Counted from the first letter of the stretch, positions 14,033 to 46,762 are shown. The stretch: 64,000 nt of DNA from a virus (IMGVR_UViG_3300044991_001618:48964-112963); one strand, 5' to 3'. Notes: generated by a model not told the origin, from the letters alone. Program-made: numbers and translations.

Positions 14033-14683
14033 TTATCTAATAATACTAGTATTTAATCTATAAATATATAATCTTTCAGGTATTTGATAAAACTTATACC
14101 CATTATTAATGGCTCTTTGCCATAAATCCCAATCCTCCATACCTTTAATATCTCTATATCCACCTAATTCTAATAATGCATTTTTTCTAACTAACATAGA
14201 ACCATGAGTTAATACATTCTCACTAAAAATTTTATTAAAAATATCTAAATGAGTTATATTGTCATTAACATCAAAACAACTTGGCAATAAATTATCATCA
14301 TTTATTCCAGTAATATTCCAAGCATGTGTTCCTAAAAAATCAATTTCATTATTTTCTATGTAGTGAAGTTGCTTTTCAAGTTTGTCTGGTAAATATAAAT
14401 CATCGCCATCCAAAAATCCAACCCATTCAGTTTCAACATGCTTTAAACCAAATTCTTTAGCATATGATAATCCTTGTTTTTTATCTTTTTTTAATATGGT
14501 TAAATCTAAATTGTAATTTGCTAATTCAATCATTTTTTGAGTATAATCCCAACATTCATCTAAAACAATAATAGTTTTAAAATTTTTATAAGTTTGATTA
14601 ACCAATGAATTTATTGATTTATTCAATAACATATCATAAAATTCATTTATACTATGCACACAAATTAAAATTGTTAATTTCAT
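14033..14683 (-). CDS. GT2-family glycosyltransferase
   Basis: SLVNQTY, FLDGDD, EDWDLW. Confidence 0.88.
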   Translation of the reverse strand: MKLTILICVHSINEFYDMLLNKSINSLVNQTYKNFKTIIVLDECWDYTQKMIELANYNLDLTILKKDKKQGLSYAKEFGLKHVETEWVGFLDGDDLYLPDKLEKQLHYIENNEIDFLGTHAWNITGINDDNLLPSCFDVNDNITHLDIFNKIFSENVLTHGSMLVRKNALLELGGYRDIKGMEDWDLWQRAINNGYKFYQIPERLYIYRLNTSIIR

Positions 14684-14689
14684 AATTCT

Positions 14690-17639: not shown

Positions 17640-17670
17640 ATTGTTATTATTTTTTATTTCATTGAAAAAA

Positions 17671-19338: not shown

Positions 19339-19358
19339 ACTTTTTTAATGTTTTAAAA

Positions 19359-20003
19359 TTATTTTTTATAAATTTCATAAGTAGATAAATCAGGATATGG
19401 TAATTCCAAATCCTCATTATGTTTTTTTGTTCCATTCAAGTTATAAAATTGACTCATCATCAATAATCCTCTTGCTGCAAGTTCTGGCATCATATAAAAA
19501 TTCCAACCTAACATATCAAAATAATCATCATGATAAGAACATTCTCTTCTACCACTAAACCTTGCTCTTTTGAACCACATAGCAGCATGCAGATTGTCTG
19601 TTAAAATTGCACCGCCTTTACTCAATTTCAATGTTTTGTATGGTCCTGTGAATGATACACACATGTGAGTTTCTGGTATATACATATTTGCAGTAAATCT
19701 TAGGGCAGAATCTATCACATTTGTTGGGTTTAACCTATATGAGCCTTTAGTTGTGTTACCCTCTACAGGTGTAAAATTAACTTTTAACCCTGCATGAATT
19801 ATTTCACAAGGAACTGAAGGATATGTCCTTGAAGGGCAATCTACATAATCAGTGGCCAATGATTTTTTAATGTTTTTTTCATAATACAATGAAAGAAAAA
19901 GAGCATTACTCATATTGTCTAAAGCAATTGCATAAGGTGCTCCAGTATAATCGCATATACTTTTCTCAAAGTCTTCAGTTATTTTATAAACTCCTTGCGC
20001 CAT
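19359..20003 (-). CDS. Short DegT-like aminotransferase (second copy)
   Basis: FE....YTGAPYAIA, IDSA, SFTGPYKTL...GGAILTD; 214 aa. Confidence 0.75.
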   Translation of the reverse strand: MAQGVYKITEDFEKSICDYTGAPYAIALDNMSNALFLSLYYEKNIKKSLATDYVDCPSRTYPSVPCEIIHAGLKVNFTPVEGNTTKGSYRLNPTNVIDSALRFTANMYIPETHMCVSFTGPYKTLKLSKGGAILTDNLHAAMWFKRARFSGRRECSYHDDYFDMLGWNFYMMPELAARGLLMMSQFYNLNGTKKHNEDLELPYPDLSTYEIYKK

Positions 20004-20589
20004 TTTTAATTATTTTTACAGGAACTCCAACATAAGTTCCAGGTTTATTTATATCTTTCACTACACAACCATTTGAACCAATTACAACTTCTTCACAAAT
20101 ATTAATCTTCTGTTTTACACTAGAATTAGTCCCCAAATAAACAACATCTCCAATATTACAATTTCCTGAAACTCTTGCACCAGGAGCAGTTGTAAAATAA
20201 TCTCCAATTTTACAATCATGACCTATTGATGTATGTATGTTTAAATGAGTGTGTTTACCAAAATTACAATTAGTTGTAATAATCACACCTGAACAAACAA
20301 TACTACCTTCGCCAAATTCAATGTTTTTATTTAAAATTTGTGCTGAAGGACTAATATATTTTGTATATATAGTCTCCTTTGGTAATTTTTCAACTAAACT
20401 TTTTCTTAATTTACTATCACCTATTGCAACTAAAACAATATATTTTTTTGGATCAAATTTGGATAAAGGATAAATATTATCATTATTTTCATTAAAGAAA
20501 GTATCTTCAACAAAACATTTTATATTATTTTTCATTTCAGCTCTAATCTCATTAGCACACCCACCAGCCCCTATCAAAACTAACTCCAT
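19984..20589 (-). CDS. PglD/NeuD-family sugar N/O-acetyltransferase
   Basis: IGAGG, VAIGD..LR, IGHD, hexapeptide repeats, VGVP. Confidence 0.88.
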   Translation of the reverse strand: MELVLIGAGGCANEIRAEMKNNIKCFVEDTFFNENNDNIYPLSKFDPKKYIVLVAIGDSKLRKSLVEKLPKETIYTKYISPSAQILNKNIEFGEGSIVCSGVIITTNCNFGKHTHLNIHTSIGHDCKIGDYFTTAPGARVSGNCNIGDVVYLGTNSSVKQKINICEEVVIGSNGCVVKDINKPGTYVGVPVKIIKNGARSL

Positions 20590-26247: not shown

Positions 26248-28002
26248 ATGAGTTATCAAAATATTAATCAATATAATTTTAATAAGATTGGATTTAGACC
26301 TGTAAATGAAATTATTGATATAAGTTTGGCTTCGGATGAGTTGAATTTTGATGAGGAAACTGTATTTTCATCAAATTTGATTGCTGAGAATGATGGGAAT
26401 AGGATGCCATTCAATTTTGATTTTAACTATTCTGGTAATTCAAGTGGATATTCATCAACAGATGTTATTGTTTCAAAAAATTATTATAATCCAGAAAATT
26501 ATAATTTAACAGCAAATACATACCAAAATAAAATTTCAATATGTGATATTGGATTAACCGGAATTGATAATGGATTAACCAATGTTATTTCTGGTCAAAC
26601 CATTGAAATAAATTATGGTTTATATACAAATACAAATGATATATATAATAGGTATAAATTTGATAGAAGATTAAAATTACACCCCATAACAGGGTTCACA
26701 ACAAGCACAAATAGAATATATAATGATAATAGTTATTCTTATAATATAACATCTGGAACAACATCAAGTCTCAAATATTCATCATTAAATGGTTCATTTT
26801 ATCAAGGATTTTATAGATTATTTGGTTATGATTATGAAATATTCCCAGAAAGACCAAATCTTGGCTGGACAGCAGAATTTGTATTAAAATATAGATGGAC
26901 AGGCGATACAAATGGTTTGAATGTAAGATATCCAAAAAATAAGGGGACATTCTTTTATTTAGGTGCAAGAGCAGAAAATAAGTTTTATCATTTTGCTGAT
27001 GGACATCCAGTGTCATATAGTGCATATACAAGACCAACATCTGGCTTAACTTGTTGGGATACTTGCAATTGTGATATAAATTATTCAGCATCCACATATT
27101 CAGCATCAACTTGTAATAAGGTATATCCAATCACAGGAATAACAAATCCAGATAAAGATGTTATATTTAATGAACCAAATCCCTTATATGATTCTGTTTC
27201 AAATGCACTATCACTTCAGTTAAGTGGTAATTCTGGCAACCCAATAGTTTGTGTAAAAACATTCACCCTAACAGGAACTTGCGAAACATCAGGTGCAACT
27301 ATAAATCAATGGTGCTCAACAAAAGGAATATTTGATGAATTTAAAAATACAACATATATCCAAGATGAAAATTGGGTTCAAATTGACGCAGTATTTGTTA
27401 GAGATAGACTAATTGAAAATTGTGATTTAAAAGAACTTGGGGGGTTAGGATTATTAGTCTCAAGGGAATATACTGCAACAACAACCAATAGAAGCATTGA
27501 ATTAATACAACCAAAATTAAGTGGTGAAACAAATGCAAGCATTGAAGTTGTTAATTTTGACCAATCATGGATTAATACAAAAAAATATAGAAATGGAAAT
27601 TTAAGAATATACATAAATGGTAAAATATTCTTCATCATTGATAATTTTGAGGAAATTATCCCAAGACCATTAAATACTCTAAAAGAAAGACAAATTGGCG
27701 TCCCCTTCAATATTTCAGTTGGGGGTGGCACACAAGGGCTTAAAGATTCTCTTACATTAAGTTCATGTACAAATAACACCCTAATACAAGACCCAGAATT
27801 ATTACCAACTGATATACTAAATAATACATCATATTCTGGTTTAACCACAAATATTACTCTTGAAGAAGAATTTGGGGGTAGTTTAATAGGTGATATGGGG
27901 GCATTTAGAATGTATGTTGAACCCTTAAATGCTGGTCAAATAAGGCATAATTTTAATATATTAAAAACAAAATATAATTTAATAAACCCATACATAAAGT
28001 AG
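26248..28002 (+). CDS. Putative virion structural protein (Ser/Thr/Asn-rich, LamG-like C-terminus)
   Basis: LRIYINGK and GDMGAFRMYVEPLNAGQIRHNFN resemble a LamG/ConA end; TATTTAT upstream. Confidence 0.55.
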   Translation: MSYQNINQYNFNKIGFRPVNEIIDISLASDELNFDEETVFSSNLIAENDGNRMPFNFDFNYSGNSSGYSSTDVIVSKNYYNPENYNLTANTYQNKISICDIGLTGIDNGLTNVISGQTIEINYGLYTNTNDIYNRYKFDRRLKLHPITGFTTSTNRIYNDNSYSYNITSGTTSSLKYSSLNGSFYQGFYRLFGYDYEIFPERPNLGWTAEFVLKYRWTGDTNGLNVRYPKNKGTFFYLGARAENKFYHFADGHPVSYSAYTRPTSGLTCWDTCNCDINYSASTYSASTCNKVYPITGITNPDKDVIFNEPNPLYDSVSNALSLQLSGNSGNPIVCVKTFTLTGTCETSGATINQWCSTKGIFDEFKNTTYIQDENWVQIDAVFVRDRLIENCDLKELGGLGLLVSREYTATTTNRSIELIQPKLSGETNASIEVVNFDQSWINTKKYRNGNLRIYINGKIFFIIDNFEEIIPRPLNTLKERQIGVPFNISVGGGTQGLKDSLTLSSCTNNTLIQDPELLPTDILNNTSYSGLTTNITLEEEFGGSLIGDMGAFRMYVEPLNAGQIRHNFNILKTKYNLINPYIK

Positions 28003-28054
28003 AATATTTACTTTATTGTAAAAAACTTTAATATTAATATATTAAATGTTTTAA

Positions 28055-29305
28055 ATGAGTAAGATATTTGTTCAAATTGCATCTTATAGAGATTATTTAT
28101 TGGAATCAACCATAGAAGATATAATTTCAAATGCAAAAAACCCCAAGAACCTAGTTATTGCAATTGCACGACAATACCACCCAGATGATAAGTTTGGCAC
28201 ATTAGATAAATGGAGAAAAGATAAGAGATTCAAAATTATTGATATATTATATAATGAAACAAAAGGTGTTTGTTGGGCAAGAAACATGGTTCAACAATTA
28301 TATAATAATGAAGAATATACATTACAGATTGATTCCCACATGCGTTTTGAACAAAATTGGGATGATATTTTAATTAAAATGATTAAGCAACTTCAAAAAT
28401 CTGGCTACCCAAAACCATTATTAACAGGGTATGTATCCTCTTTTGACCCAGATAATGATCCAGAGGCAAGGTCAAAAGAACCTTGGCGAATGCTATTTGA
28501 TAGATTCATTCCAGAAGGTGCAATGTTTTTTTTACCTGATACTATTAAAAATTGGCAAAATTTAAGTCAGCCAGTTTCTTCAAGATTTTATTCTGCACAT
28601 TTTTGTTTCACACTTGGCATATTTTCAAAGGAGGTTCAGCATAACCCAGAATATTATTTTCATGGTGAAGAAATCTCAATTGCTGCAAGAGCATATACAC
28701 ATGGTTATGATTTATTTCATCCACATAGATTAACTGTTTATCATGAATATACAAGAAAGAACAGAACAAAACAATGGGATGATGATAAGGAGTGGGTTGA
28801 TAAAAATAATAAAAGCCATTTAATTAATAAGAAACTTTTTGGGATGGATGGCTTGGTTCAGGAGGGTCATAATGGTTTGTATGGATTTGGTTCTGTTCGA
28901 ACATTAAGGGATTATGAGAGGTATGCTGGGATTTTATTTTCAAGAAGGGCTATTCAAGAGGAGACATTAAAACATTCTTACCCCCCAAATACATATAATT
29001 ATGAAACGGAGGAAGATTGGTTAAATTCATTTTCAAGCATATTTAAACATTGTATTGATGTGTCTTATAATTCAGTTCCAGAGAAAGATTATGATTTTTG
29101 GGTGGTTGCATTCCATGATGAGAATGATGAAACAATATATCGAAAAGACGCAGATAAGGATGAAATTAATAGAATGTTAAATGACCCCGACCATTACTGT
29201 AAAATATGGAGGGAATTCAATGCGATAAGGCAGCCAAAGTATTGGGTTGTTTGGCCTCATAGTGAATCTAAAGGTTGGTGTGATAAGATAAGTGGTAATT
29301 TTTAA
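28055..29305 (+). CDS. GT60-like polypeptide GlcNAc-transferase (copy 1)
   Basis: IFVQIASYRD, KGVCWAR, LQIDSHMRF..NWD, FHGEE, RAYTHGYD: motifs of the Gnt1-type GlcNAc transferase family. Confidence 0.82.
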   Translation: MSKIFVQIASYRDYLLESTIEDIISNAKNPKNLVIAIARQYHPDDKFGTLDKWRKDKRFKIIDILYNETKGVCWARNMVQQLYNNEEYTLQIDSHMRFEQNWDDILIKMIKQLQKSGYPKPLLTGYVSSFDPDNDPEARSKEPWRMLFDRFIPEGAMFFLPDTIKNWQNLSQPVSSRFYSAHFCFTLGIFSKEVQHNPEYYFHGEEISIAARAYTHGYDLFHPHRLTVYHEYTRKNRTKQWDDDKEWVDKNNKSHLINKKLFGMDGLVQEGHNGLYGFGSVRTLRDYERYAGILFSRRAIQEETLKHSYPPNTYNYETEEDWLNSFSSIFKHCIDVSYNSVPEKDYDFWVVAFHDENDETIYRKDADKDEINRMLNDPDHYCKIWREFNAIRQPKYWVVWPHSESKGWCDKISGNF

Positions 29306-29315
29306 TTTAATATAT

Positions 29316-30590
29316 ATGTTTAGTATAATAAACCATATAATAGCTGAAAAAGGATATTACATTAATTTGGATAACTCAATAGATAGGAGAGTTAGGGTTG
29401 AGGAACAAATTGAGAAATATAATATTAATGGATTAGAAAGATTCCCAGCATTGACTGATTCTTGGCATCAATACTCTTGCACCAAATCTCATTTGGCAAT
29501 ATTACAGAAATGTTTTGATGAAAATATTGAAACAGTAATGATTTTTGAAGATGATTTTCAGATATATGATGAATGTAAATTTGCTCACAATACACTTAAT
29601 TTAAATGATTGTTTAACTAGTGTTGTTAATGATTTAAATTTGGTTGATTGGGATGTTATATTGTTTGGCTGCAACCCAAGAACTTATTTAATACCTATAA
29701 CAAATAATTTGGCAATTAACTCTAAAAGTACAGGTGCTTGGGCTTATCTCATTAAAAAGAAGGCATATAAATACATTTTAGATAATTTAAATTATGGACG
29801 TGATTTATTGGCTATAGATGATTTTTTACCACTATTGAATCAAAGAGGATTCACATCTTTGACCACCATACCATTAACCATTCATCATGGTGTTAATTTA
29901 GTATCAACATTACAACCAAGAGAACCTGTCAACTATAATGTTATGATAGAGGGAAATTATTATAATTATATTTATAATTATGTTACAGATAAAAGTCTTA
30001 CATATGATACTTATCAAATTGAACAAGAAATAACAGTTGTGATAACAGGTAAATTTATCAATGACTTCATATCACATTTAAGATATTCATTAATGTCAAT
30101 TCCCCCAACCATAGAGAAATGCAGATTTCTAATTATATATGACATATTGGATTATTCAGCATCTCACAATAGCATTATTCAAGTATATGATTATTTCAAA
30201 AATAGAAACAAATCAATAAATTGTGATATTAGATTTTCTACTGAAAACAATAGAAATAATTTACTATTAGAGTTAATTAAAACAAAATATTTTATTCATT
30301 TAGAACATGGCTGGGTATTCTTGAATAATGATATCAACTTTAAAGAAATGATAAATAATCTAAACAATAATGAAAGCATTAATGGATTTTGGTTTAATCA
30401 TGGCCAAGATGAGGCAAATAATACCCCAACCATATTTAGAACATCAACATATACCAATAATTACAATTTGCAAATGTATGATGAAAATATAATGGTTACA
30501 CATATAAATCACCAAGAATTAGAAAACCCAATTCTTAAAAATATTGCAAATGAATTTATTAAAAATAATCCTTTAAAAACATATGATTAA
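29316..30590 (+). CDS. GT25-like glycosyltransferase with additional C-terminal GT-A-like domain
   Basis: YYINLD.S.DRR, C.KSH, MIFEDD, AYLI, AID; start placed at MFSII. Confidence 0.72.
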   Translation: MFSIINHIIAEKGYYINLDNSIDRRVRVEEQIEKYNINGLERFPALTDSWHQYSCTKSHLAILQKCFDENIETVMIFEDDFQIYDECKFAHNTLNLNDCLTSVVNDLNLVDWDVILFGCNPRTYLIPITNNLAINSKSTGAWAYLIKKKAYKYILDNLNYGRDLLAIDDFLPLLNQRGFTSLTTIPLTIHHGVNLVSTLQPREPVNYNVMIEGNYYNYIYNYVTDKSLTYDTYQIEQEITVVITGKFINDFISHLRYSLMSIPPTIEKCRFLIIYDILDYSASHNSIIQVYDYFKNRNKSINCDIRFSTENNRNNLLLELIKTKYFIHLEHGWVFLNNDINFKEMINNLNNNESINGFWFNHGQDEANNTPTIFRTSTYTNNYNLQMYDENIMVTHINHQELENPILKNIANEFIKNNPLKTYD

Positions 30591-31249
30591 TGAAATTTTT
30601 ATTCAAATTTCCATCCAGAGGGAGGTCAAATAAATTCAAGGAAACATTGCAATTACATTTAATGCATTTGTCAAATAAAAATGAATACAAATTCATATTC
30701 ACTTTTGATGAAGATGATGATACAATGAATAATGATGATATTAAAAACTTTATAAAAACTTTAAATATTGATTTTAAAATATTTTATGGTCAAAGCAAAA
30801 ATAAAATAGAAGCAATAAATGCAAATTTAAGTGATGAGGATTATGATATTTTAATTTTAATAGCTGATGATATGATTCCACAAGTTATGGAATATGATGA
30901 GATAATAAGAAACATTATTGAAACATCAGAAAATGGTACAGATACTATTATACATTTCAATACAACTAGATGGGCAAATCTTCTTGATGTTTGGTGTATA
31001 ATGGGAAAGAAATATTATGATAGATTTAAATACATTTATAATCCTGTGTATAAGAGTATTTATGCGGATAATGAATATACTGAGGTTGCTCAAATTTTAG
31101 ATAGATACATTTTTTCTGAAATCATAGCATTCAACCATAATTGGGATTCAGATGAAACAACCTTAAAAAGTTGGGGGCATAATCAAGAAGATGAGAATAT
31201 TTATAATTCAAGAAAAAATGAAAATTTTGATTTAAAAAATGGTAAATAA
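30590..31249 (+). CDS. GT2-like glycosyltransferase; paralog of 15340-16005
   Basis: KFPSRGR, ILIADDMIP, YKS.YADNE. Confidence 0.65.
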   Translation: MKFLFKFPSRGRSNKFKETLQLHLMHLSNKNEYKFIFTFDEDDDTMNNDDIKNFIKTLNIDFKIFYGQSKNKIEAINANLSDEDYDILILIADDMIPQVMEYDEIIRNIIETSENGTDTIIHFNTTRWANLLDVWCIMGKKYYDRFKYIYNPVYKSIYADNEYTEVAQILDRYIFSEIIAFNHNWDSDETTLKSWGHNQEDENIYNSRKNENFDLKNGK

Positions 31250-31907
31250 AAAAATAATATCTTTTTCCTTGTGGGGTGATAATCCAAAATATACCTTGGG
31301 TGCAATTAAAAATGCTAAATTAGCTAGTACAATTTACTCCAATTGGATATGTAGATATTATATTGGTCTTTCAACCCCTACTGAAATTGTGGATGAATTA
31401 AAACATATGAATAACACAGAGATTGTAATTATGAATGAGCAAGGTGAGTGGAATTCTATGTTCTGGAGGTTTTTACCTATTGGTGATAATGATATTGATG
31501 TTATGTTATCAAGAGATTGTGATTCAAGATTATCAATTAGAGAAAAGTTATGTGTTGATGAATTTATAAATTCAGATAAAATGTTTCATAATATGATAGA
31601 CCACCCATTCCATAATGGAATTATGGGTGGCATGTGGGGTGCAAAAAAAGGAGTTTTAAATAATATGAAAGAATTAATTGATAATTGGCCAAAAACAAAT
31701 CAATGGCAAACAGATCAATCTTTTTTAAATACAATGGTAACGCCTATAATTGGTGATAATATTTTTATACATGATTCCATCAATAAAAGAAATTTTCCAA
31801 TAAAAAGAAAAGATTATGAATATGTTGGGGAATCATATAATGGATATGATGAAAGGTCTGAACATTGGTGTGTTTTTACTTTTGATGAATACAAACATTT
31901 GGATTAA
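31239..31907 (+). CDS. Putative GT-A glycosyltransferase; paralog of 14690-15343
   Basis: ISFSLWGDNPKYTLGAIKNA identical to the paralog; SRDCDSR, MGGMWG. Confidence 0.6.
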   Translation: MVNKKIISFSLWGDNPKYTLGAIKNAKLASTIYSNWICRYYIGLSTPTEIVDELKHMNNTEIVIMNEQGEWNSMFWRFLPIGDNDIDVMLSRDCDSRLSIREKLCVDEFINSDKMFHNMIDHPFHNGIMGGMWGAKKGVLNNMKELIDNWPKTNQWQTDQSFLNTMVTPIIGDNIFIHDSINKRNFPIKRKDYEYVGESYNGYDERSEHWCVFTFDEYKHLD

Positions 31908-31909
31908 AT

Positions 31910-33583
31910 ATGAATAAATTAACATTAGTAACTGGACTCTGGGATATAAAAAGAGATTCATTGGGTGATGGTTGGAATCGCTCATATAATCATTATTTGG
32001 ATAAATTAAAACAATTATTAAGTGTTGATAATAATTTAATTGTATTTGGTGATAATGAATTAAAGAAATTTGTTTTTCAACATAGAAGTGAGAATAATAC
32101 TTTTTTTATTGAAAGAAATTTGGATTGGTTTAAAAATAATAATTACTTTGATTTAATCCAAAAAATAAGAACAAACCCCCAATGGTATCAACAAGCTGGG
32201 TGGTTAGAAGAATCCACACAAGCAAAGTTAGAATATTATAATCCCCTAGTTATGTCCAAGATGTTCTTGTTGCATGATGCAAAGATTATGGATCCGTTTA
32301 ATTCAGAATATGTGTTTTGGATTGATGCTGGATTAACAAATACAGTTCACCCTGGATATTTCACTCATGATAAGGTTTTGGATATGTTGCCAAAATATAT
32401 ATCAAAATTTAGTTTTGTTTGTTTTCCATATGAAACAACAAGTGAAATACATGGTTTTGATTATAATAAGATGGTATCTATTGTTGGCAAACCAGTTAAC
32501 AAAGTGGCAAGAGGTGGTTTCTTTGGTGGACCCAAAAACACAATAAGTGATATTAATTCAATATATTATGGCTTATTAATGGATACATTAGGTCAGGGTT
32601 ATATGGGTACAGAGGAATCCTTATTTTCAATAATGACATATAAACATTCAGATTTAATAAATTATTTTGAGATTGATGGGAATGGTTTGTTTGGAAAGTT
32701 TTTTGAGGATTTAAAGAATGATGTATTGGAAATAAAATCAGAGAATAAAATGATAAATAGCACGCCTTTGGATACATCAAAAGTTGGCTTATATGTAATA
32801 GGGTTTAATTCCCCCAACCAATTTGAAACATTGATTAAATCTATGTTAGATTATGATGCAAATTTTATTGATAAGACGCAGAAATATTTATTGGATAATT
32901 CAACAGATTTATCAACAACCCCAAGATATATTGAGTTATGTGAGTTGTATGGATTTGAGCATATAAAGAAAGATAATCTTGGAATATGTGGTGGAAGGCA
33001 ATTCATTGCGGAGCATTTTAATGATTCTGATTTGGATGTGATGATTTTCTCTGAGGATGATATGAACTTCTATAAGAAACCAGGTGAGGTATGCAGAAAT
33101 GGATTTAATAGATATACCCCCAACTTATATAACAAGTGTTTGAATATTATTCAGAAGGAGAATTATAATTTCTTAAAGATTAATTTTAGTGAATTTTATG
33201 GGGACAATTCAACACAATGGAGTTGGTATAATGTTCCGCAAAATGTTAGGGTTGAGAATTGGCCAGATAAACCAAATCTACCTATTCAAGGATTGGATCC
33301 AAATGCACCAAGAACAAAGTTCAATAATATAAAATCAATGGAGGCTTTGCCTTATGCTGATGGTGAGATTTATTATTGCAACTGGACACATTTCATAACA
33401 AAGGCTGGAAATAAAAAAATGTTTATTGATACAAAATTTGCCCATCCTTATGAAAATACATGGATGTCATTTATGTACCAAGAAACAGTTAAGAATGTTA
33501 TTAAGCCTGGAATATTATTATTGACCCCTATTGAACATCATAGGTTTGACCATTATGCTGGTGAATTAAGAAGGGAGAATTAA
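31910..33583 (+). CDS. HtrL/YibB (WlaTC)-like glycosyltransferase fused to a second GT-A-like domain
   Basis: TLVTGLWDI, FWIDAG, GGFFGG; C-half LLDNS, FSEDD. Confidence 0.68.
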   Translation: MNKLTLVTGLWDIKRDSLGDGWNRSYNHYLDKLKQLLSVDNNLIVFGDNELKKFVFQHRSENNTFFIERNLDWFKNNNYFDLIQKIRTNPQWYQQAGWLEESTQAKLEYYNPLVMSKMFLLHDAKIMDPFNSEYVFWIDAGLTNTVHPGYFTHDKVLDMLPKYISKFSFVCFPYETTSEIHGFDYNKMVSIVGKPVNKVARGGFFGGPKNTISDINSIYYGLLMDTLGQGYMGTEESLFSIMTYKHSDLINYFEIDGNGLFGKFFEDLKNDVLEIKSENKMINSTPLDTSKVGLYVIGFNSPNQFETLIKSMLDYDANFIDKTQKYLLDNSTDLSTTPRYIELCELYGFEHIKKDNLGICGGRQFIAEHFNDSDLDVMIFSEDDMNFYKKPGEVCRNGFNRYTPNLYNKCLNIIQKENYNFLKINFSEFYGDNSTQWSWYNVPQNVRVENWPDKPNLPIQGLDPNAPRTKFNNIKSMEALPYADGEIYYCNWTHFITKAGNKKMFIDTKFAHPYENTWMSFMYQETVKNVIKPGILLLTPIEHHRFDHYAGELRREN

Positions 33584-33626
33584 TATTTAATTCAAAATAA
33601 AATATATTATTATTATAATAAAAAAT

Positions 33627-34883
33627 ATGAAAATATTTGTTCAAATTGCAAGTTATCGTGACCCTGAATTAGTTAAAACCATTGAGGATATTCTGGATAA
33701 GGCAAAGAAGCCAAAGAACCTTGTTTTTGCCATTGCAAGGCAATATGCTGATGAGGATGGATTTGATAATCTTGATAAATGGAGAAAAGATAAAAGATTT
33801 AAAATATTGGATATTCCATATAATGAATCAAAGGGTGCTTGTTGGGCAAGAAATTTACTTCAGCAATTATATAATGATGAGGAATATACCCTTCAACTTG
33901 ATTCACATATGCGTTTTAATCAAGATTGGGATGACACATTAATAAAAATAATTAAGGGCTTGCAGAAAGATGGTTATAAGAAGCCTTTATTAACTTCCTA
34001 TGCTTGTTCTTATGAACCAACAAATGACCCAGCAGGGAGGATACAAGACCCTTGGAGGATGGTTTTTGATAGGTTTGCTCCAGAAGGTAATGTCTTTTTT
34101 ATGCCAGAAACAATTGATGAATGGAAAACATTAAAGAAACCAATACCAGCAAGATTTTATTCAGCACATTATGCTTTTACCCTTGGACAATTTGCCAAGG
34201 AGGTTCAGCATAATCCAGAATATTATTTTCATGGTGAGGAGATTTCAATTGCAGTTAGAGCTTATACTTGGGGATATGATTTATTCCATCCCCATATTCC
34301 AATCATATATCATGAATATACAAGAAAGGGAAAGGTTAAACAATGGGATGATGATAAGGAATGGGTTAAACGTAATGATAGGGCACATTATCTAAATAAA
34401 AGATTGTTTGGGGTTGATGGTGTTCAACAAGAGGGTCATGATGGATTATATGGTTTTGGTCCGGTTAGAACATTAAGAGATTATGAAAAATATGCTGGTA
34501 TTCATTTTTCCAAACGTGCTGTTCAACAATGGACAATTGATAAGAAGAACCCCCCAGTTAAAGAGGAGTATAAGACAGAGGAAGAATGGGAAAATAGTTT
34601 TTCAATTATATTTCGGCATTGCATTGATGTCCAATATGATTCAGTTCCAGAAAAGGATTATGAATATTGGGTGGTTGCATTCCATGATGAGAATGATAAC
34701 ACATTATATAGAAAAGATGCAGATATTAATGAGATAAATTCAATGATGAATGATTCAGATAAGTATTGCAAAATATGGAGAGATTTCCAAACAACAAAGC
34801 AGCCAGATTATTGGGTTGTTTGGCCTTATTCAAAATCAAAAGGCTGGTGTGACAGATTGACAGGTAAATTAAATATAATATAA
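33627..34883 (+). CDS. GT60-like polypeptide GlcNAc-transferase (copy 2)
   Basis: IFVQIASYRDPE, SKGACWAR, LQLDSHMRF, FHGEEISIA. Confidence 0.82.
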   Translation: MKIFVQIASYRDPELVKTIEDILDKAKKPKNLVFAIARQYADEDGFDNLDKWRKDKRFKILDIPYNESKGACWARNLLQQLYNDEEYTLQLDSHMRFNQDWDDTLIKIIKGLQKDGYKKPLLTSYACSYEPTNDPAGRIQDPWRMVFDRFAPEGNVFFMPETIDEWKTLKKPIPARFYSAHYAFTLGQFAKEVQHNPEYYFHGEEISIAVRAYTWGYDLFHPHIPIIYHEYTRKGKVKQWDDDKEWVKRNDRAHYLNKRLFGVDGVQQEGHDGLYGFGPVRTLRDYEKYAGIHFSKRAVQQWTIDKKNPPVKEEYKTEEEWENSFSIIFRHCIDVQYDSVPEKDYEYWVVAFHDENDNTLYRKDADINEINSMMNDSDKYCKIWRDFQTTKQPDYWVVWPYSKSKGWCDRLTGKLNII

Positions 34884-34886
34884 TAT

Positions 34887-35498
34887 ATGAGAAACATTAG
34901 AACAGATAAATTACAACATGGGTTTTTAGCAGTATATGACCCATTATTTATGAGTTTGGATTCAATTTCAAACGTGTTGGAAATTGGGGTTTATAATGGT
35001 GGTAGTCTTAGATTATTACAGAGTTATTTTCCCAATACTAATATCTATGGTATGGATTTGGATACCCCAAAATATTTTAACCCCAATGATAAATTTAAAA
35101 TTCTTATTGGCAATCAAGAAAATAGAGAGGAGTTAGAAGATGCTGTTGCTGTCATTGATAATGAATTAGATTTGATTATTGATGATGGGGGTCACACTAT
35201 GAAGCAACAACAAATATCTTTTGGGTGTTTATTTAAGCATTTAAAGAAAGGGGGAATTTATATAATAGAAGATTTACATACTTCTAGGTGGGGTATAAAT
35301 TCAGACTACATAGATAAAAGTGATTTAATTACAACATTAGATTTACTTAATAATTTTAAAAACACTAGTAATATTATTTCAAATCATATGACTAACGAGG
35401 AAAAAGCTTACTTGGAGGACAATATCGAATCAATAGAAATTTGGTCAAAGAATATAGAACACAATATTAGTGTGACTTCAGTCATTAGAAAAAGGTAA
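34887..35498 (+). CDS. Class I SAM-dependent (sugar O-)methyltransferase
   Basis: VLEIGVYNGGSL, G.Q, DLIIDDGGH, GGIYIIEDL. Confidence 0.85.
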   Translation: MRNIRTDKLQHGFLAVYDPLFMSLDSISNVLEIGVYNGGSLRLLQSYFPNTNIYGMDLDTPKYFNPNDKFKILIGNQENREELEDAVAVIDNELDLIIDDGGHTMKQQQISFGCLFKHLKKGGIYIIEDLHTSRWGINSDYIDKSDLITTLDLLNNFKNTSNIISNHMTNEEKAYLEDNIESIEIWSKNIEHNISVTSVIRKR

Positions 35499-35529
35499 CA
35501 TTAATATTTATACCTAAATAATTAATTTA

Positions 35530-36240
35530 ATGATTATTAAAAAACAAATATCAAGGATAAAAGAAATTATTGAATCTTTTACTAAAAACTCATATGATTT
35601 ACCAGAAAAACCAGATGAAGTGTTATTCAATGATTTTTGGCTTTCCCAATTGGATGTAGAAGGTGATTATGTAAAGTTGTATCATTTTGGTGAGCCAGAT
35701 TTGGAATACCTAGATCCATCTCATTTTGGTAAAAATTCATATACAAGTTCAGAGAAATGGTGGGGAAAAAATAGGTTATTTTTTTACACAAATTTAAAAC
35801 AAAAAGAAAGGATTGTTTCAGGTACACTATATACTGCAACTATAGATTTAAAAGATTTGTATCCATTCAATGCTGACCCCCTAAACTTATATGACATTGC
35901 TGTTGAAATGTATTCTAATGAAAATATTCCATACCAAAGGCAAGTATTATATATGTCAAATATGCTAATAGATATGGGGTATAAGGGAATGATATATAAA
36001 TGGCACGATGAAAGTTTGTTGGCAGTAATATGGGAAAAGGTAAAAAACATAAAATCAGAGCAAGAGAAGAAAGAATATAAGTTACCAACAAGCGATATGG
36101 TTGGTTATCCAATAGAAAATGGATTAAGCACCAATCCAAGATTATCACATGAGGAAAAAATAGAGGGAGTAGTTAAGAAAATGATTCACAGTAACTACCC
36201 CCCAGATTTTATTCAAAATTACATTGACAGTTTTAAGTGA
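35530..36240 (+). CDS. Hypothetical protein, possible ADP-ribosyltransferase-like fold
   Basis: LYH, LFFYT, LY...I...LY, GYKGMIY pattern resembles ART-PolyVal. Confidence 0.4.
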   Translation: MIIKKQISRIKEIIESFTKNSYDLPEKPDEVLFNDFWLSQLDVEGDYVKLYHFGEPDLEYLDPSHFGKNSYTSSEKWWGKNRLFFYTNLKQKERIVSGTLYTATIDLKDLYPFNADPLNLYDIAVEMYSNENIPYQRQVLYMSNMLIDMGYKGMIYKWHDESLLAVIWEKVKNIKSEQEKKEYKLPTSDMVGYPIENGLSTNPRLSHEEKIEGVVKKMIHSNYPPDFIQNYIDSFK

Positions 36241-37355
36241 TATTTTAATTTATCTGCCATATCAAGTTTTTCCCAAGGCATAGTATCATTACCAAAATGA
36301 CCTTTTGCTGAATTGTAATAGATTGGGGTTTTTAAATTAAAATGTTTTATAACATCAGATGGGGTTGTTGGGAATATGTTTTTAACCACATTAATTAACA
36401 AATCATCATTAAATTTACCATATGTATTTATGCTTAGTGAGGCTGGTGTTGAAACACCAATCATATAAGCAATTTCAACACTACACTTATCAGCAACACC
36501 ACTTGCAACAATATTCTTTGCAATATACCTTGCCAAATATGCGCCAGTTCTATCCACTTTGCTTGGGTCTTTACCACTAAAAGCACCACCCCCAACTGGA
36601 CAATATGGTCCGTATTGGTCAACCACAATCTTTCTTCCTGTTACACCGCAATCAGCAACTGGTCCACCTACATTCCAAGAACCAGCAGGGTTAATGACAA
36701 TTGAGGTGTTATCATCAATCAAGGCAAAAATATCAGCATCCAAATTCATTTCATTATACCGAATCCCTTTCATAATAATTTGCCTTACATTAGATAGGGT
36801 TAAATCTTCGCTATGCATTGTTGATACCAATATGGTATGAATTCTTTTGCTATTGTCATCATACTCAATTGTTGTTTGTGTTTTAATATCAGGACCGAAT
36901 CCTATATTATTATATACATAATCAACCAACTTCTTTGATACATACATACCAATTGGCATATAGGTTTTTGTTTCGTTTGTTGCATAGCCAGTCATAAAAC
37001 CTTGGTCACCAGCACCCAAAGAATCTTCGCTATATTTTAAAACAGCACTATTTATTTCTCTACTTTGCTGTCCAATCAAATTTATGATTGTAATATTTTT
37101 GTAATAAAACCCATGACCTGGGTTAGTGTAACCAATTTCTTTTATGGTATTTTTAATAACCTCTTCATAATTGATTCTATGTGTGCTGGATATTTCACCC
37201 CCTAACACAACACAATTGTCTTTAACAAGAGTTTCAACAGCAACCTTTGCGTCTGGGTCAAGAGTAAGGTAAGCATCAAGTATTGCGTCTGAAATTTGGT
37301 CAGCAACCTTATCTGGATGCCCAATGGAAACGCTTTCAGCGGTAATTAATTTCAT
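36219..37355 (-). CDS. metK: S-adenosylmethionine synthetase
   Basis: ESVSIGHPDK, GAGDQG, TGRKIVVD.YG, GGGAFSGKDPSKVDR; start placed at MKLITAES. Confidence 0.96.
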   Translation of the reverse strand: MKLITAESVSIGHPDKVADQISDAILDAYLTLDPDAKVAVETLVKDNCVVLGGEISSTHRINYEEVIKNTIKEIGYTNPGHGFYYKNITIINLIGQQSREINSAVLKYSEDSLGAGDQGFMTGYATNETKTYMPIGMYVSKKLVDYVYNNIGFGPDIKTQTTIEYDDNSKRIHTILVSTMHSEDLTLSNVRQIIMKGIRYNEMNLDADIFALIDDNTSIVINPAGSWNVGGPVADCGVTGRKIVVDQYGPYCPVGGGAFSGKDPSKVDRTGAYLARYIAKNIVASGVADKCSVEIAYMIGVSTPASLSINTYGKFNDDLLINVVKNIFPTTPSDVIKHFNLKTPIYYNSAKGHFGNDTMPWEKLDMADKLKYHLKLSM

Positions 37356-37389
37356 ATTTATATATTTTAGAGTTAAACAATTCACTTTG

Positions 37390-37492: not shown

Positions 37493-37882
37493 TTAAATCT
37501 TTGATTGTATCTTTAATAATTCTTTAACTGCATCTTTTTGACTATAACATACTGCACCAAAAATTACTGCAATAATAATAATAATTGGATTTAGTGCATC
37601 ACTTGTTGTTATATGGAATAATATAATATTTAAAATAATAGGTATAATTGCCAGAAAACCAAGAAATCTTGTTCTTTTATATAATAAAAGTAAGCTACTA
37701 AAAATTTCCACAATACCAACTAATGAACCAAGATAGGAATTAAACATTCCCACCATAAGAAGTTGTGCCCCCATATCTGTTGGTGGTGGAGGGGTCATAA
37801 AGTGTAAAAATTTATTAGCACCAAATACAATAAAAAGAAATGCTAACATAGCAATTGAAGACTTTAATAAATTCTCTTTCAT
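37493..37882 (-). CDS. DoxX-like membrane protein
   Basis: Four hydrophobic segments, FGANKF, VEI...LLL, NIILFH. Confidence 0.75.
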   Translation of the reverse strand: MKENLLKSSIAMLAFLFIVFGANKFLHFMTPPPPTDMGAQLLMVGMFNSYLGSLVGIVEIFSSLLLLYKRTRFLGFLAIIPIILNIILFHITTSDALNPIIIIIAVIFGAVCYSQKDAVKELLKIQSKI

Positions 37883-37937: not shown

Positions 37938-40900
37938 TTAGTTAAAGATGTATCTCAATCCCAATTGCGCTTGCCAAGCATTACCTACACTAATTGTTTT
38001 AACAAAAGTTTTGTCTAATAGTTGTGTTGAACCATCAACAACTCTTGTTGCCATTCTGTATGTTGGAACACCATCAGCAGAAACAGATGCTACTGTTAAT
38101 GGACTTGCTGTACCGAAACTACCAGATGTTGTAGAATATCCAACACCCCAAGCATTATTCAATATATTTCCAAAGTTAAGAATATCTGCTCTAAATTGCA
38201 AGGTATTTCTTTTTCCTTTTACATTAACATATACTTCTTGAACCGCAGATAAATCAACTCTTGTTAACCAAGGGAAGTATCCACCATTTCTTTCAGCGTA
38301 TGTTCCTTTGCGTGATGATAAATATTCATCATTTGAAATTAGATTGTTTAACGCCTCTTGTTGTTGTGCTGGGGTGAAAGTCTTTCCACCAGCAGTAAGT
38401 GTTGCAAAAGTGATTTCTGTTGCATTATTTGGCACATAAATGAGGTCGTTAATTTGTCCATCACCATTTAAGTCATTTCCATAAATGTAACTGATTTTAC
38501 TACCACTTGCAGATGTTGCACCTAATGTTAATTCAGTTGAACCTCCAAATTTACCGCCATAGTTAATTCTATAATTAACATATCCAATAAATCTATGACG
38601 TAAATCATTATCTGTGAATGATGGGGCTAAGAAATTTTGGCCACCAACACCAGGTGCATTTGCCTGAACTGTACTACCTACTGATTGTAGATCTGTTGAC
38701 CTTGCGTTTGTATAGCCAACCATACCACCTAAACCATTAACCGCTGGTTTCTCAATCTTTGTAGTAAGAGCATAAGAATAACCCCTATCTGTATTTGTTA
38801 ATAAGAAAGCATTTGAAATTGTTGGATTTAAGAATCTTGCTATTGCAACTGTATTTGCAGCACCAGAACCTGAACTTGTAACACCTGATGCTGGATAACG
38901 TGGTCTTCCATCTGACAAGAATCTATCAGCACTTTTTAAATTTGCGTCAATATAACGTAGTCCAGATAATGTTTTACCATAAATACCTTCAACTGTTCCG
39001 ATTAATCCAAATGGTAATTTTTGGTCAACTGCAATATTTGATTTCCAAACTGATGGGTATTTTAAATCCTCACTTGATGCGTTAATAACATAAGGTGGTA
39101 ATTTTGTAATATCAGTTGTTGTTGGTGCAAATCTGCTTGGGTCAGTTGTGAATGGGTATGCAGTTGTATTTGTTACGTTAATAACCGCTGTATTAACACC
39201 ATTATTACCCAGTTGATTAGATACCAAAACTTGTGGAACTCTTGAAACAAAGATACCCGTTCCACCCCTAACTTGGGTTGTTTGGTCACCATTAACATCA
39301 TAATTAAATCCAATTCTTGGGGATAACAATAATGTTGGTTTTGGGAATGCACTTGTGTTAATTTTTGTTGGTTGACCATTTTTATCTCTGAATGTTAAAC
39401 CACCAACAACTGGATTATAAAAATCTTCCGCAGTTGAATTGTCATACATAACAACATCCCCACGCAAACCAACTGTTAATTTGACTAAATCAGTTAATTC
39501 ATACTCATCTTGTGCATAAGCACTAAATGTGGAAACTTTTAAAGATTGTAATGGTTCAATACCCCCAGGTAATAATGAGTATCTTAGATTGTAACGGTTT
39601 AGAGTTACTGGTGATACTGGATTACTTGGGTTGTTTTTAAATTCTAATGCTGCTTTTTTGAAATCATCAATAGAATTATAAACATAAACACCATTTGATG
39701 CTGGGAAGAAAACGTTATTTGATTGGAAATATTCATAAGCCAAACCAAATGTGAAGTAATGCTTACCAGATGACAAATTAAAATTGTTTGTTAAATTTAA
39801 AGTACTGTAATTAAGTTTGTTGTTTGGTGTGAAGGGGTCAAAGCCAACAGTTGTATAGGTTGTACCATCTTTAAGAATATCTATTGTTGGAAATAAATCT
39901 GTACGATATCTTCTATCTTCAATTTGTTTATTGAATGTAGCAATAAAGTTGTTTGACTTCTTTGAAGAAAGAATTGAGTTTAATTCAAATGCAACAGAAC
40001 GAGTATTATCTTGGATGATATATCCAGTGTTTTCCCCAGAGATAGCAAATGCTGAATTTTGACGATTACCATTACCAGCTGTATTGCTACTGTTTGAACT
40101 ACTAATAACTTGTTCTGATTCTGAATTATGATGAGAATAACGAAGAGATGCTTTGTGCTTTCTACTAATGTTATAATCTAAACGAACAAGTCCTTTTGTA
40201 CTTTTAACATCATTATTAAAGTTATCAAGTGAACCAAGGTCATAATTAAAGTTTGTTTTCATAAATGAGGACAAATCTTTTAAATCACTTTCTGTTACAC
40301 GAGATACGTTACCAGTAGCACCTGGCTTGTTTGTTTGCCAACTTAATGCTGGATTTGTTCCAGTAAATTGTTCAGCATTAACAAAAATAAATAATTTGTT
40401 TTTGATGATTGGTGCACCAATTCTAAAACCAGTTGTTTTTTCATCTAGGAAGATTGGTGGTAGTTTGATACCATTTACAGTTTTACCTACTAAATCACTT
40501 GACCTAAATAATCTGTAAAATGAACCAGAAATATCATTTGTACCAGAACGAGTTACTGCATTAACACCTGCACCAACAAAGCCAGATTGTCTAACATCAA
40601 AGGGGGCAATATTTAATTGTACCTCTTCAACAGCATCAAGAGAAATTGCGGTTGTTCCTGTTCTACCACCAGCAGCAGCAGATGACCCAAGACCAAATCC
40701 ATTATTAAATACTGAACCATCAATTGTGAAATTGTTAAAACGGCTGTCTTGCCCACCAAATGAACGACCATTACCATAAGCATTATACTTTGTAATGTCA
40801 TCAATTGTTCTACCAATTGTTGGTAAACTATTAATTGTACTTGAACTAAATTGAGTTGATGCCCCAGTTCTTTGACTAGAAAAAATGGCATTTTTGTTTG

Positions 40901-41282
40901 CCGTAATTGTTACCCCTTGCAAATCATAAGATGATTCAACTAAGGAAAAATTCAATGTTTTGGTTGTTCCCAAATTTAATATAACATTGGATTGGGTTTT
41001 TGTGGCATATCCAACATAACTAACTGTTATGTTATAAGGGCCACCAACACGCATCCCTGGAATTCTATATGTACCATCAATATCAGTTGATGTACCATAA
41101 CTTGTTCCAGATGGTAAGTGAACAGCCTCAATGGTTGCACCAACCAAAACCTCACCTTTTGGGTCACTTGTTGGTACTGAAGGTGTTGTTACCACACCAG
41201 TTATTGCTGAAGTTGTTACTTGAGCATAACTCATACTAAACGTCATAAATGTTAATAATAACGTTTTAAAAATGTTTTTCAT
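37938..41282 (-). CDS. TonB-dependent outer-membrane receptor (Oar-like, N-terminal carboxypeptidase-regulatory-like domain)
   Basis: Signal peptide, [25 protein letters not shown], plug ([30 protein letters not shown]), [10 protein letters not shown]-terminal QLGLRYIF. Confidence 0.92.
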
Positions 41283-46060: not shown

Positions 46061-46762
46061 TTATTCTTTTGGCTCATTATTATTTGCATTATCATATAAT
46101 TCAAGAACAAAATCCCAATTTATATAATTCCAGAAGTTATGTATATACTCATCTCTTTTGTTTTGGTATTTGAGATAATAGGCATGTTCCCATAAATCCA
46201 ATCCCAATATTGGAAATCCACCACCTTTAATGACATTCATAAGGGGATTATCTTGGTTTGGGGTGGTGATAATTTTTAATGTATTATTTTTTGTTGCAAC
46301 AAGCCAGACCCATCCTGATCCAAAATGGCTTTTTGCCTTTTCTTCAAATTTTGTTTTAAATGAATTAATTGAGCCAAAACTTTTTATTATTTTATCTTTT
46401 AATTCTTTTGGGATATTCTTTTTGGTTGGTGATAACATATTCCAAAACAAAGCGTGATTAAATGCTCCACCTGCATTATTTCTAATTGTTTTGTTGAATT
46501 TGCTTATATTTGTTATTATCTGTTTTAAATCATAATTTGATTTATTATCTTTTAATGCTTTATTCAATTTATCAACATAACCTTTATAATGTTTATTATA
46601 ATGAATATCCATTGTTTTCTCATCAATAAAAGGTTTTAATGAGGCATACGAATAAGGGAGTTTTTCAATTCCAACCTTTTTCATTTCATTAAGTAAAAAA
46701 TTAACATTATCTTTGTATATCCTTGATATTATTTCTTCTTTGATTGTTTCAAGTATTTTCAT
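46061..46762 (-). CDS. sodA: Mn/Fe superoxide dismutase (Mn-type signature) with N-terminal extension
   Basis: LPYSY..L.P.ID, HYNKH, NNAGG.FNH, FGSGW.WL, NQDNP, DLWEHAYY. Confidence 0.93.
   Translation of the reverse strand: MKILETIKEEIISRIYKDNVNFLLNEMKKVGIEKLPYSYASLKPFIDEKTMDIHYNKHYKGYVDKLNKALKDNKSNYDLKQIITNISKFNKTIRNNAGGAFNHALFWNMLSPTKKNIPKELKDKIIKSFGSINSFKTKFEEKAKSHFGSGWVWLVATKNNTLKIITTPNQDNPLMNVIKGGGFPILGLDLWEHAYYLKYQNKRDEYIHNFWNYINWDFVLELYDNANNNEPKE

Follow-up and report, generated by a model that had tools for sequence, protein, structure and literature searches.

Two islands of sugar genes are carried by the window, by which we denote the whole 64,000-nucleotide stretch analyzed here, i.e., the right-hand 64 kb of the 112,963-base IMG/VR virus record (IMGVR_UViG_3300044991_001618:48964-112963; CheckV completeness 36%). 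The second island, with its core at positions 28055-35498 counted from the first base of the window, contains two paralogous genes for GT60-like glycosyltransferases and, between them, a gene for an HtrL-like transferase. This island probably serves to O-glycosylate Thr/Pro tracts in phage appendage proteins by a mucin-type pathway in the cytoplasm, the chemical steps of which we deduce from homology and gene linkage. New for the window phage are the duplicated initiator, a gene module that recurs in both islands, the wholesale replacement of a gene cassette in comparison to a close relative, and the loss of both syntenic Thr/Pro stalks.

Comparisons draw on two near-complete relatives, G001 and G002, with genomes of up to 270 and 295 kb that are estimated to be 90% and 98% complete, respectively. 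G001 is the closest near-complete relative, with core proteins 85-94% identical to those of the window phage. Transmembrane (TM) segments were predicted with a simple hydropathy window, and open reading frames (ORFs) in the compared loci were called mechanically. From 26248 to 36240, nine genes point in one direction and overlap or are separated by gaps of at most 52 bases, and no terminator-like site was found on their strand. They are given below with their lengths in amino acids (aa), together with the gene on the opposite strand that follows.

26248-28002, plus strand: 584-aa protein, first of the row; corresponds to the N-terminal ~600 residues of a 1434-aa fiber-like protein of G001; no Pfam or PHROG match
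28055-29305, plus strand: GT60-like glycosyltransferase copy 1, 416 aa (PF11397, phrog_24687)
29292-30590, plus strand: 432-aa protein with N-terminal GT25-like domain (PF01755); strain-specific inner cassette
30590-31249, plus strand: putative small glycosyltransferase, 219 aa (phrog_14945 'glycosyltransferase', E 5e-9; DEDD and ADDM motifs)
31239-31907, plus strand: 222-aa protein of an unnamed family with invariant RDxDSR and WRF motifs
31910-33583, plus strand: HtrL-like transferase, 557 aa, two GT-A domains (1-278, HtrL_YibB; 290-557); second conserved pillar of the bracket
33627-34883, plus strand: GT60-like glycosyltransferase copy 2, 418 aa (PF11397, phrog_24687)
34887-35498, plus strand: S-adenosylmethionine (SAM)-dependent (sugar) O-methyltransferase (Methyltransf_24, E 5e-6; phage methyltransferase PHROG, E 2e-21)
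35530-36240, plus strand: 236-aa protein, last gene of the row; the G001 homologue is longer (389 aa, 75% identity)
36219-37385, minus strand: S-adenosylmethionine synthetase (MetK), by profile match

A preliminary description of this DNA had named two GT60-like paralogs, and both were found where it placed them, with the motifs KIFVQIASYRD, LQ[IL]DSHMRF and YFHGEE and with matches to the PF11397 profile. The extra C-terminal domain ascribed to both is borne out by an alignment of the copies at 69% identity and with 0 gaps over 414 residues, which extends through the last ~110 residues. Its reading of the intervening genes stood in part. The HtrL-like gene is recovered by Pfam, and the GT25-like gene is recognizable, though weakly so (PF01755, E 8e-9, 36.1 bits against a cut-off of 24, profile positions 67-198, residues 60-178 of 432); PDB sequence matches of the latter are GT25 proteins and COLGALT1 at E 0.002. 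The claim of two GT-A-like genes is backed only in part: 30590-31249 is matched by phrog_14945, with chance-level matches only among PDB sequences, while 31239-31907, the RDxDSR motif of which is invariant in its family, has no match in Pfam, PHROG or PDB. The O-methyltransferase expected after the second GT60-like gene is present according to Pfam and PHROG, and gmd (two copies), fcl-like and GT11 genes are indeed located in the first island.

The candidate initiator was assigned by family, motifs and predicted fold. The Pfam family 'GlcNAc' (PF11397; cut-off 21) matches copy 1 with E 2e-67 (228.5 bits) and copy 2 with E 1e-65 (222.9 bits), whereby profile positions 2-46 and 96-350 of 352 are covered, and both proteins match phrog_24687 over the full length (E 1e-161 and 8e-160, respectively). 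D93-x-H95, E205, E206 and H230 recur without exception in 38 diverse full-length homologues; of these residues, the D-x-H motif would bind the metal. The family is large, comprising 4447 clusters (50% identity) at E <= 0.001, and many of its proteins contain two to four GT60-like domains. Neither a signal peptide, nor a TM segment, nor a hydrophobic segment suited as type II anchor was detected in the GT60-like protein, which thus appears soluble, and no Pfam match to a ricin-type lectin domain was obtained at E <= 0.01.

The AlphaFold2 (AF2) model of the GT60-like enzyme (predicted local distance difference test, pLDDT, 95) has a GT-A fold. A sequence search of the PDB with the GT60-like and HtrL-like proteins returned nothing; the top PDB matches of the model in Foldseek are all polypeptide N-acetylgalactosamine (GalNAc)-transferases (ppGalNAc-Ts, E 2e-10). 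In VIA-align, the first 29 entries are ppGalNAc-Ts with Z 19.5-22.5, followed by the next fold at 18.4, K4CP at 17.6 and TarP at 16.5. In 27 of these 29 alignments, 254-280 residues, mainly model residues 1 to ~306, superimpose with a root mean square deviation (rmsd) of 3.2-3.8 A; two GalNAc-T4 entries reach 300-317 aligned residues at an rmsd of ~6. As far as the model can tell, the predicted fold is closest to that of the polypeptide GalNAc-transferases. Residues 1 to ~306 constitute the catalytic GT-A domain, and a separate beta-rich C-terminal domain of ~110 aa (residues ~310-416) co-occurs with it in phages and many bacterial phyla. Few structural alignments extend past residue 330 of the model, and those that do have a poor rmsd.

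Family GT60 comprises the polypeptide alpha-N-acetylglucosamine (GlcNAc)-transferases which start mucin-type glycans in Dictyostelium and Trypanosoma cruzi and lack the lectin domain of the animal enzymes; its characterized activities are all on polypeptides (PMC8724618). With these protist enzymes, the phage proteins share the Pfam family (~225 bits), the GT-A fold, the D-x-H motif and, as proposed here, Thr-rich mucin-like acceptors. In contrast to them, the phage enzyme would be soluble and cytoplasmic in a bacterium, carries the extra ~110-residue C-terminal domain, and is bracketed with an HtrL-like gene. The GT27 polypeptide GalNAc-transferases of animals and apicomplexans provide the nearest solved structures (catalytic domain, Z 19.5-22.5) and likewise form isoform families by duplication. 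However, the phage enzyme has only 12-14% sequence identity to them, no membrane anchor, no Pfam ricin-type lectin match, and a smaller, structurally unplaced C-terminal domain.

The HtrL-like protein matches HtrL_YibB (PF09612) with residues 4-255 (E 8e-18, 65.4 bits, cut-off 24.1). Its model (pLDDT 90.5) consists of two domains with a low-confidence linker between them. Residues 1-268 align to GT6 enzymes (BoGT6a, human A/B transferases; Z 13.0-13.3), and residues 283-557, with an invariant E382-D383-D384 (EDD) motif, align to B4GALNT1, POMGnT1 and GnT-I (Z 14-15); since both sets of scores are tied with other GT-A folds, they establish only the GT-A nature of both halves. With the whole chain, Foldseek retrieves tandem GT-A enzymes, namely LH3, mimivirus R699, K4CP, LARGE1 and COLGALT1. 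Natural fusions of GT60-like and HtrL-like domains (P0061, P0081, P0123) exist besides GT60::GT60 tandems (P0001, P0004, P0007), and HtrL-like::O-methyltransferase fusions of 770-790 aa, with the methyltransferase domain at the HtrL-like C-terminus, are common among relatives. By the Rosetta-stone argument, these fusions join the GT60-like, HtrL-like and O-methyltransferase genes into one functional unit.

The two enzymes form the ends of a conserved bracket. The 80 related viral loci that were compared reduce to 69 distinct architectures, across which the succession of GT60-like gene, variable cassette and HtrL-like gene is conserved. It is embedded in a recurrent frame, one strand of which carries dut, a cytidylyltransferase gene, an exonuclease gene and six small genes. 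The other strand carries the 26248 homologue and variable large ORFs, followed by the GT60-like and HtrL-like genes with 2-12 variable small genes between them, and then by a gene for 124 aa and that for family-B DNA polymerase (PolB). Across the related loci, the GT60-like protein is at least 69% identical and PolB ~62%. The cargo, on the other hand, changes. The inner cassette 29292-31907, including the GT25-like gene, is replaced outright by seven unrelated genes in G001, and G002 has 17.5 kb of cargo between its GT60-like and HtrL-like genes. Likewise, the phoH-dut interval of G001 measures only ~3.4 kb and does not contain the large block that fills this interval in the window:

2888-20589, minus strand: strain-specific 17.7-kb block in the phoH-dut interval, with ~20 genes for sugar-nucleotide enzymes, transferases, methyltransferases and acyltransferases; absent from G001

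These swaps in G001 and G002 delineate two hot spots with interchangeable sugar-gene cargo around fixed enzymes. Variable cargo around fixed genes is the pattern of O-antigen and capsule loci.

Candidate acceptors were sought as ORFs rich in Thr and Pro, defined by 22 Thr+Pro in 40 residues. The first ORF upstream of the GT60 gene is Thr/Pro-rich in 38 of 65 architectures, and any of the three upstream ORFs is so in 49 of 65, counts which share ancestry and do not represent independent trials; the genome-wide rate of such ORFs is 3/321 and 7/328. In several other architectures, a Thr/Pro-rich ORF directly follows the HtrL-like gene. It is the spot beside GT60 that recurs rather than the protein, as the Thr/Pro ORFs found there are non-homologous and vary in number. 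In the relatives, the tracts span 200-650 residues, in which every other residue is Thr and Pro is confined to odd offsets from it, and the proteins terminate in Laminin_G_3 (ConA-like) or Gly_rich_2 domains, owing to which they look like fibers or adhesins on a flexible stalk. On bacterial chromosomes of many phyla, a Thr/Ser/Pro-rich ORF lies at most three genes from a GT60-like gene in 12 of 322 cases, compared to 1 of 505 farther away (p 9e-5), although some of these may be spurious ORFs.

In the window, both syntenic counterparts of such proteins are short. The 584-aa product of 26248-28002 equals residues 1-598 of the 1434-aa G001 protein and ends where the stalk starts; in G001, a Thr/Pro stalk of ~560 aa and a Gly_rich_2 domain come next. 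Compared to G001, ~7.2 kb are missing, comprising this stalk, the Gly-rich domain, a second stalk protein (1228 aa) and two small genes. ESM Atlas yielded for the 584-aa protein viral hypothetical proteins and a weak ConA-like lead only, and tblastn with the 26248 and 55078 proteins gave no match in cultured phages. The other counterpart is the sole Thr/Pro-rich ORF in the 113-kb record:

55982-56302, plus strand: protein of 106 aa, the C-terminal 40 of which form a Thr/Pro tail (T-x-T-x); lies two genes upstream of the tail sheath; candidate acceptor

It corresponds to the N-terminal ~100 residues of a G001 protein of 1330 aa, which is composed of an N-domain, a 650-residue stalk, and Gly-rich and ConA-like parts. 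A repeat collapse in the assembly is an unlikely cause of the short genes, given that the distal domains are wholly missing and that one junction removes 7.2 kb and two further genes relative to G001. The short genes may be natural, since a short form (140-aa ORF) exists in G002, too.

Cultured phages carry the same arrangement. In the Xanthomonas jumbo phage XacN1, ORF334 is 45% identical to the GT60-like protein, and ORF330 is 41% identical to the HtrL-like protein over the full length; between them lie a carbamoyltransferase gene and two ORFs, with PolB nearby. Xoo-sp13 is arranged as XacN1, and the bracket is also present in CM1. In these three phages, the sole Ser/Thr/Pro-rich ORF within 20 kb encodes a 3100-3300-aa protein with a 30-50-residue Pro/Thr/Ser tract, which adjoins an annotated baseplate-wedge gene in XacN1 and Xoo-sp13. 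XacN1 virions contain at least two glycoproteins that are positive in periodic-acid-Schiff (PAS) staining, and the XacN1 annotation lists two glycosyltransferases only, one of which is the GT60-like ORF334 (PMC5852040). The XacN1 locus ORF334-ORF330, as well as those of Xoo-sp13 and the Stenotrophomonas phages CM1 and RAS14, thus agrees with the window in gene order, intervening cassette and nearby PolB, and adds the giant tract protein and the PAS-stained virion glycoproteins. It differs from the window by a single GT60 copy and by the carbamoyltransferase in the cassette, and the XacN1 authors drew no link between enzyme and substrate. In mycobacteriophages, according to Freeman et al. (2023) as cited in PMC12619734, phage transferases decorate virion proteins at the C-terminal ends of capsid and tail-tube subunits, and the tract of the 55982 protein is C-terminal likewise. 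Unlike mycobacteriophages, the carriers considered here are jumbo myophages with cultured members on Xanthomonas and Stenotrophomonas, and our literature search found no mucin-like repeat or GT60 link for the mycobacteriophage system.

The first island would supply further parts of the glycan. The GT11, gmd and fcl-like genes lie within the strain-specific 17.7-kb block, which in addition encodes aminotransferase-like, N-acyl (FabH, SDR, hexapeptide transferases) and dioxygenase functions. Five methyltransferases, four of FkbM type and one Methyltransf_24, are distributed over the two islands, and MetK is a plausible source of SAM for sugar methylation by them. From this enzyme content, we predict a glycan more elaborate than the H-type trisaccharide (Fuc-a1,2-Gal-b-GlcNAc) which the preliminary description had envisaged. 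Positions 5784-9406 (minus strand) encode FabH (KAS III), an SDR, a hexapeptide acyltransferase, a PhyH-family dioxygenase and a short DegT-like ORF, a gene set that suggests an N-acylated, possibly hydroxylated amino-sugar. The 'DegT-like' ORFs 5784-6383 and 19359-20003 (both minus strand) measure 199 and 214 aa and cover ~50-80 of 360 profile positions; as G002 has an 84%-identical 214-aa homologue of the latter, it looks like a short form that is conserved and not like a gene that was broken.

Duplication is a recurrent feature of both islands. In a tree built from 62 GT60-like proteins, with XacN1 as the root, copies 1 and 2 of the window phage and of the relatives L006 and L008 form sister clades, which indicates a single GT60 duplication in their common ancestor; the duplication is common only to the relatives L006, L007 and L008. 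Orthologue pairs of both copies reveal ratios of nonsynonymous to synonymous substitution rates (dN/dS) of 0.06-0.13, with dS near saturation, and by this measure both copies are under purifying selection. They differ by 38 fixed substitutions spread over both domains, of which the lineage-wide residue is kept at 22 by copy 1 and at 11 by copy 2. The dS to L006 differs 2.5-fold between copy 1 (28055-29305) and copy 2 (33627-34883), with 1.07 versus 0.42, a difference that points to mosaic recombination within the island. A module of the second island recurs in the first:

14690-16005, minus strand: two-gene module with its paralogs at 30590-31907 in the second island, gene order unchanged

Its genes 15340-16005 and 14690-15343 have 39% and 52% identity to 30590-31249 and 31239-31907, respectively. 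The gmd and short DegT-like genes are doubled as well. These duplications may reasonably be read as pointing to two parallel glycans or two acceptor classes, and by analogy to the animal GalNAc-T isoforms the doubling of the initiator suggests two specificities, either for acceptors or for priming.

The window (GC content ~29%) encodes a tail sheath of 1047 aa, PolB, an SNF2 helicase, PhoH, dUTPase and arrays of small paralogous genes, which together identify the record as a fragment of a ~300-kb contractile-tailed jumbo phage (myophage). Megablast with the island DNA gave no near-identical match in cultured phages. The lineage may be that of the 'moraphages', for which four core glycosyltransferase groups are described (PMC12619734). 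Next to metK lie two genes of a different kind:

37493-37882, minus strand: 4-TM MauE/DoxX-like protein, adjoining the SusC-like barrel
37938-41282, minus strand: SusC/TonB-dependent-receptor-like outer-membrane beta-barrel, 1114 aa (OMP_b-brl_4, E 2e-49, and a CarboxypepD_reg domain)

For the 4-TM protein, an identity as GtrA was ruled out, the match being weakly MauE-like. The barrel has an 87% identical counterpart in G001 and none in G002. It hints at a Bacteroidota host, together with a Fib_succ_major protein and the labels of metagenome-assembled genomes (MAGs) on near-identical contigs. The gene for a Fib_succ_major (Fibrobacter/Bacteroidota paralogous domain) protein, 56349-56915 (plus strand), lies directly upstream of the tail sheath, and a second copy exists elsewhere in G001. 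Further genes of the window encode an Fe/Mn superoxide dismutase (46061-46762, minus strand), which is phage-encoded and kept across the lineage, and a protein with an ART-PolyVal ADP-ribosyltransferase domain (61392-62159, plus strand, E 2e-11), followed by a glucosaminidase-like protein (62270-63139). A ATATTTAT-like box lies ahead of many genes, whatever their class, and was rejected as a shared late-promoter motif, as it is non-discriminating in a genome of 71% AT; scans for sigma-70 promoters and terminators gave signals at shuffle level.

Taken in sequence, the proposed pathway would proceed as follows. The first N-acetylhexosamine (HexNAc), probably GlcNAc with UDP-GlcNAc as donor, would be attached by the soluble GT60-like enzymes to Thr residues of Thr/Pro tracts with an alternating Thr-x pattern. 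The two-domain HtrL-like enzyme would add the next one or two sugars, and strain-specific transferases, i.e., the GT25-like enzyme, the 30590/31239 pair and products of the 17.7-kb first island, would finish the glycan, which may then be O-methylated with SAM provided by the phage MetK. For an export route, we searched the 90% and 98% complete relatives G001 and G002 and found no protein with at least five TM segments, no PF02397 (with a valid control) and no ThyA homologue; clusters of predicted TM helices are missing from the sugar-island proteins, too, according to the hydropathy scan. The statement of the preliminary description that flippase, polymerase and ligase are absent extends, along with phosphoglycosyl transferase, to this record and to the near-complete relatives. 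Its protein O-glycosylation reading gains from the GT60 family, the ppGalNAc-T-like fold, the lack of export genes, the Thr/Pro proteins beside GT60 in relatives and the PAS-positive XacN1 virion proteins. Less firm is its choice of virion proteins: we infer these acceptors from sequence and linkage, and the local stalk genes are short.

A number of observations weigh against this proposal. The glycan of the lineage is a prediction from genes, the synteny counts are those of loci with shared ancestry, and at most bacterial GT60-like loci the Thr/Pro neighbor is missing. Families HtrL and GT25 are known from lipooligosaccharide (LOS) and lipopolysaccharide (LPS) loci (PMC4172580), and the island is situated among replication and nucleotide genes (dut, exonuclease, PolB, SNF2), outside the structural module. 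The C-terminal domain of the initiator was placed neither by ESM Atlas, which gave no usable match, nor by VIA-align. Most directly, the window phage has both syntenic stalk genes in a short form (products of 584 and 106 aa), its record of 113 kb offers a Thr/Pro tail of just 40 residues and gave no tblastn match to distal stalk-protein domains, and the other 64% of the genome are unseen, so that the local acceptor candidates are the 55982 tail and products of the unseen part. A phage without long stalks that nevertheless conserves two GT60 copies would also fit a protein acceptor other than a virion appendage, be it a host protein modified in the course of takeover or a phage protein without a structural role; alternatively, the modified residue could be hydroxyproline instead of Thr, as is the case in the Skp1 pathway. 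In that pathway of Dictyostelium and Toxoplasma, the cytoplasmic GT60 initiator Gnt1 is followed by a two-domain glycosyltransferase. The island would share the cytoplasmic GT60 initiator and the two-domain second transferase, but lacks a consistent prolyl hydroxylase, its acceptors look like long repeats rather than a single site, and its second enzyme is HtrL-like rather than GT2/GT74. Dictyostelium Gnt1 modifies one cytoplasmic protein at hydroxyproline (PMC8724618), and prolyl 4-hydroxylase (P4H)-type 2-oxoglutarate-Fe(II) oxygenase genes occur in some relatives (G002:C1:288908-291681, G003:C1:101311-101607; loci L198, L201, L199), which could make hydroxyproline acceptors in phages of the G002/G003 type. 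However, PF13640 (P4H-type), present in G002 and G003, has no match in the 90%-complete G001 and a sub-threshold match of 17.7 bits in the record, a distribution that rules out prolyl hydroxylase as a core partner. As the recurrent GT60 neighbors are fiber-like proteins with lectin-like ends and the glycoproteins of XacN1 are virion proteins, we consider an acceptor outside the virion appendages unlikely.

The transferases could, moreover, remodel an envelope glycan of the host (LPS/LOS or capsule) on lipid carriers via host priming, flipping and ligation, e.g., for superinfection exclusion. Besides the occurrence of the HtrL_YibB and GT25 families in LOS/LPS loci (PMC4172580), this would account for GDP-sugar derivatives typical of O-antigens in the first island and for a SusC-like outer-membrane barrel in the same insertion, and peripheral O-antigen transferases are devoid of TM helices, too. 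We nonetheless give it little credence: the phosphoglycosyl transferase profile PF02397 was not found while its control was valid, the near-complete relatives G001 and G002 have no protein with at least five TM segments, the 4-TM neighbor is MauE/DoxX-like and not GtrA, characterized GT60 activities are all on polypeptides (PMC8724618), and both the linkage to Thr/Pro proteins and the natural GT60::HtrL fusion point elsewhere. Unlikely as well is a glycan built on phage DNA bases as a hypermodification to escape host nucleases. Such glycans exist: phage GT-A and GT-B enzymes put mono- to trisaccharides on 5-hydroxymethylcytosine (bioRxiv 10.1101/2023.12.21.572611), and arabinose chains occur on 5-hydroxycytosine in phage DNA (PMC13326640). 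The locus lies among dut, exonuclease, PolB and SNF2 helicase genes, and an arms race with restriction systems would be compatible with cassettes that vary between strains, too; in the same way, the hypermodification clusters of Pyle et al. are multi-transferase, variable in content and often near replication genes. Yet those clusters adjoin a thymidylate-synthase homologue or a 5-methylpyrimidine dioxygenase (5mYOX) enzyme, neither of which was found here, the control of the 5mYOX-type search being silent. The hydroxymethylase of thymidylate-synthase type (PF00303, dCMP/dUMP) is absent from the record and from the 90% and 98% complete relatives with a control positive in 10 of 14 genomes, whereas the Tet_JBP (5-methylpyrimidine dioxygenase) search of five records gave no match with a control silent everywhere. 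The GT-A enzymes of Pyle et al. resemble JGT and TarP, while the GT60-like enzyme resembles ppGalNAc-Ts; TarP, which was reported as the PDB neighbor of the phage DNA GT-A enzymes, falls short of these by 6 Z-units. Family and fold of the GT60-like enzymes point to polypeptide transferases, the enzyme set, with its more than 12 transferases and its methyl and acyl decoration, goes well beyond what DNA glycans are known to require, and GT60 is linked to Thr/Pro proteins.

To our knowledge, phage-encoded protein glycosylation is documented in few cases only, namely in mycobacteriophages and by the PAS staining of XacN1, and mucin-type initiation by GT60/GT27-like enzymes is, as far as we know, regarded as eukaryotic. 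In our literature search, no paper was found that links GT60 to phages or to phage Thr/Pro (mucin-like repeat) proteins; the XacN1 (PMC5852040) and moraphage (PMC12619734) papers mention transferases in general terms only. On a wider scale, a proposition that we regard as evenly balanced is that a widespread aquatic jumbo-phage lineage, reaching as far as phages of Xanthomonas and Stenotrophomonas, makes 'phage mucins', i.e., fibers with long Thr/Pro stalks which are glycosylated in the bacterial cytoplasm by a GT60 initiator, a two-headed HtrL-like extender and a swapped finishing cassette. The resulting strain-specific glycan coat would evolve like an O-antigen locus, and in the window phage the initiator would have duplicated and diverged like the animal GalNAc-T isoforms. 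If true, this would offer a simple system, with an identifiable enzyme-substrate pair, for how initiating enzymes read Thr/Pro repeats, and it would explain the large hypervariable sugar islands of jumbo phages. It would also add a new layer of virion surface diversity with a bearing on host recognition, particle stability and phage ecology.

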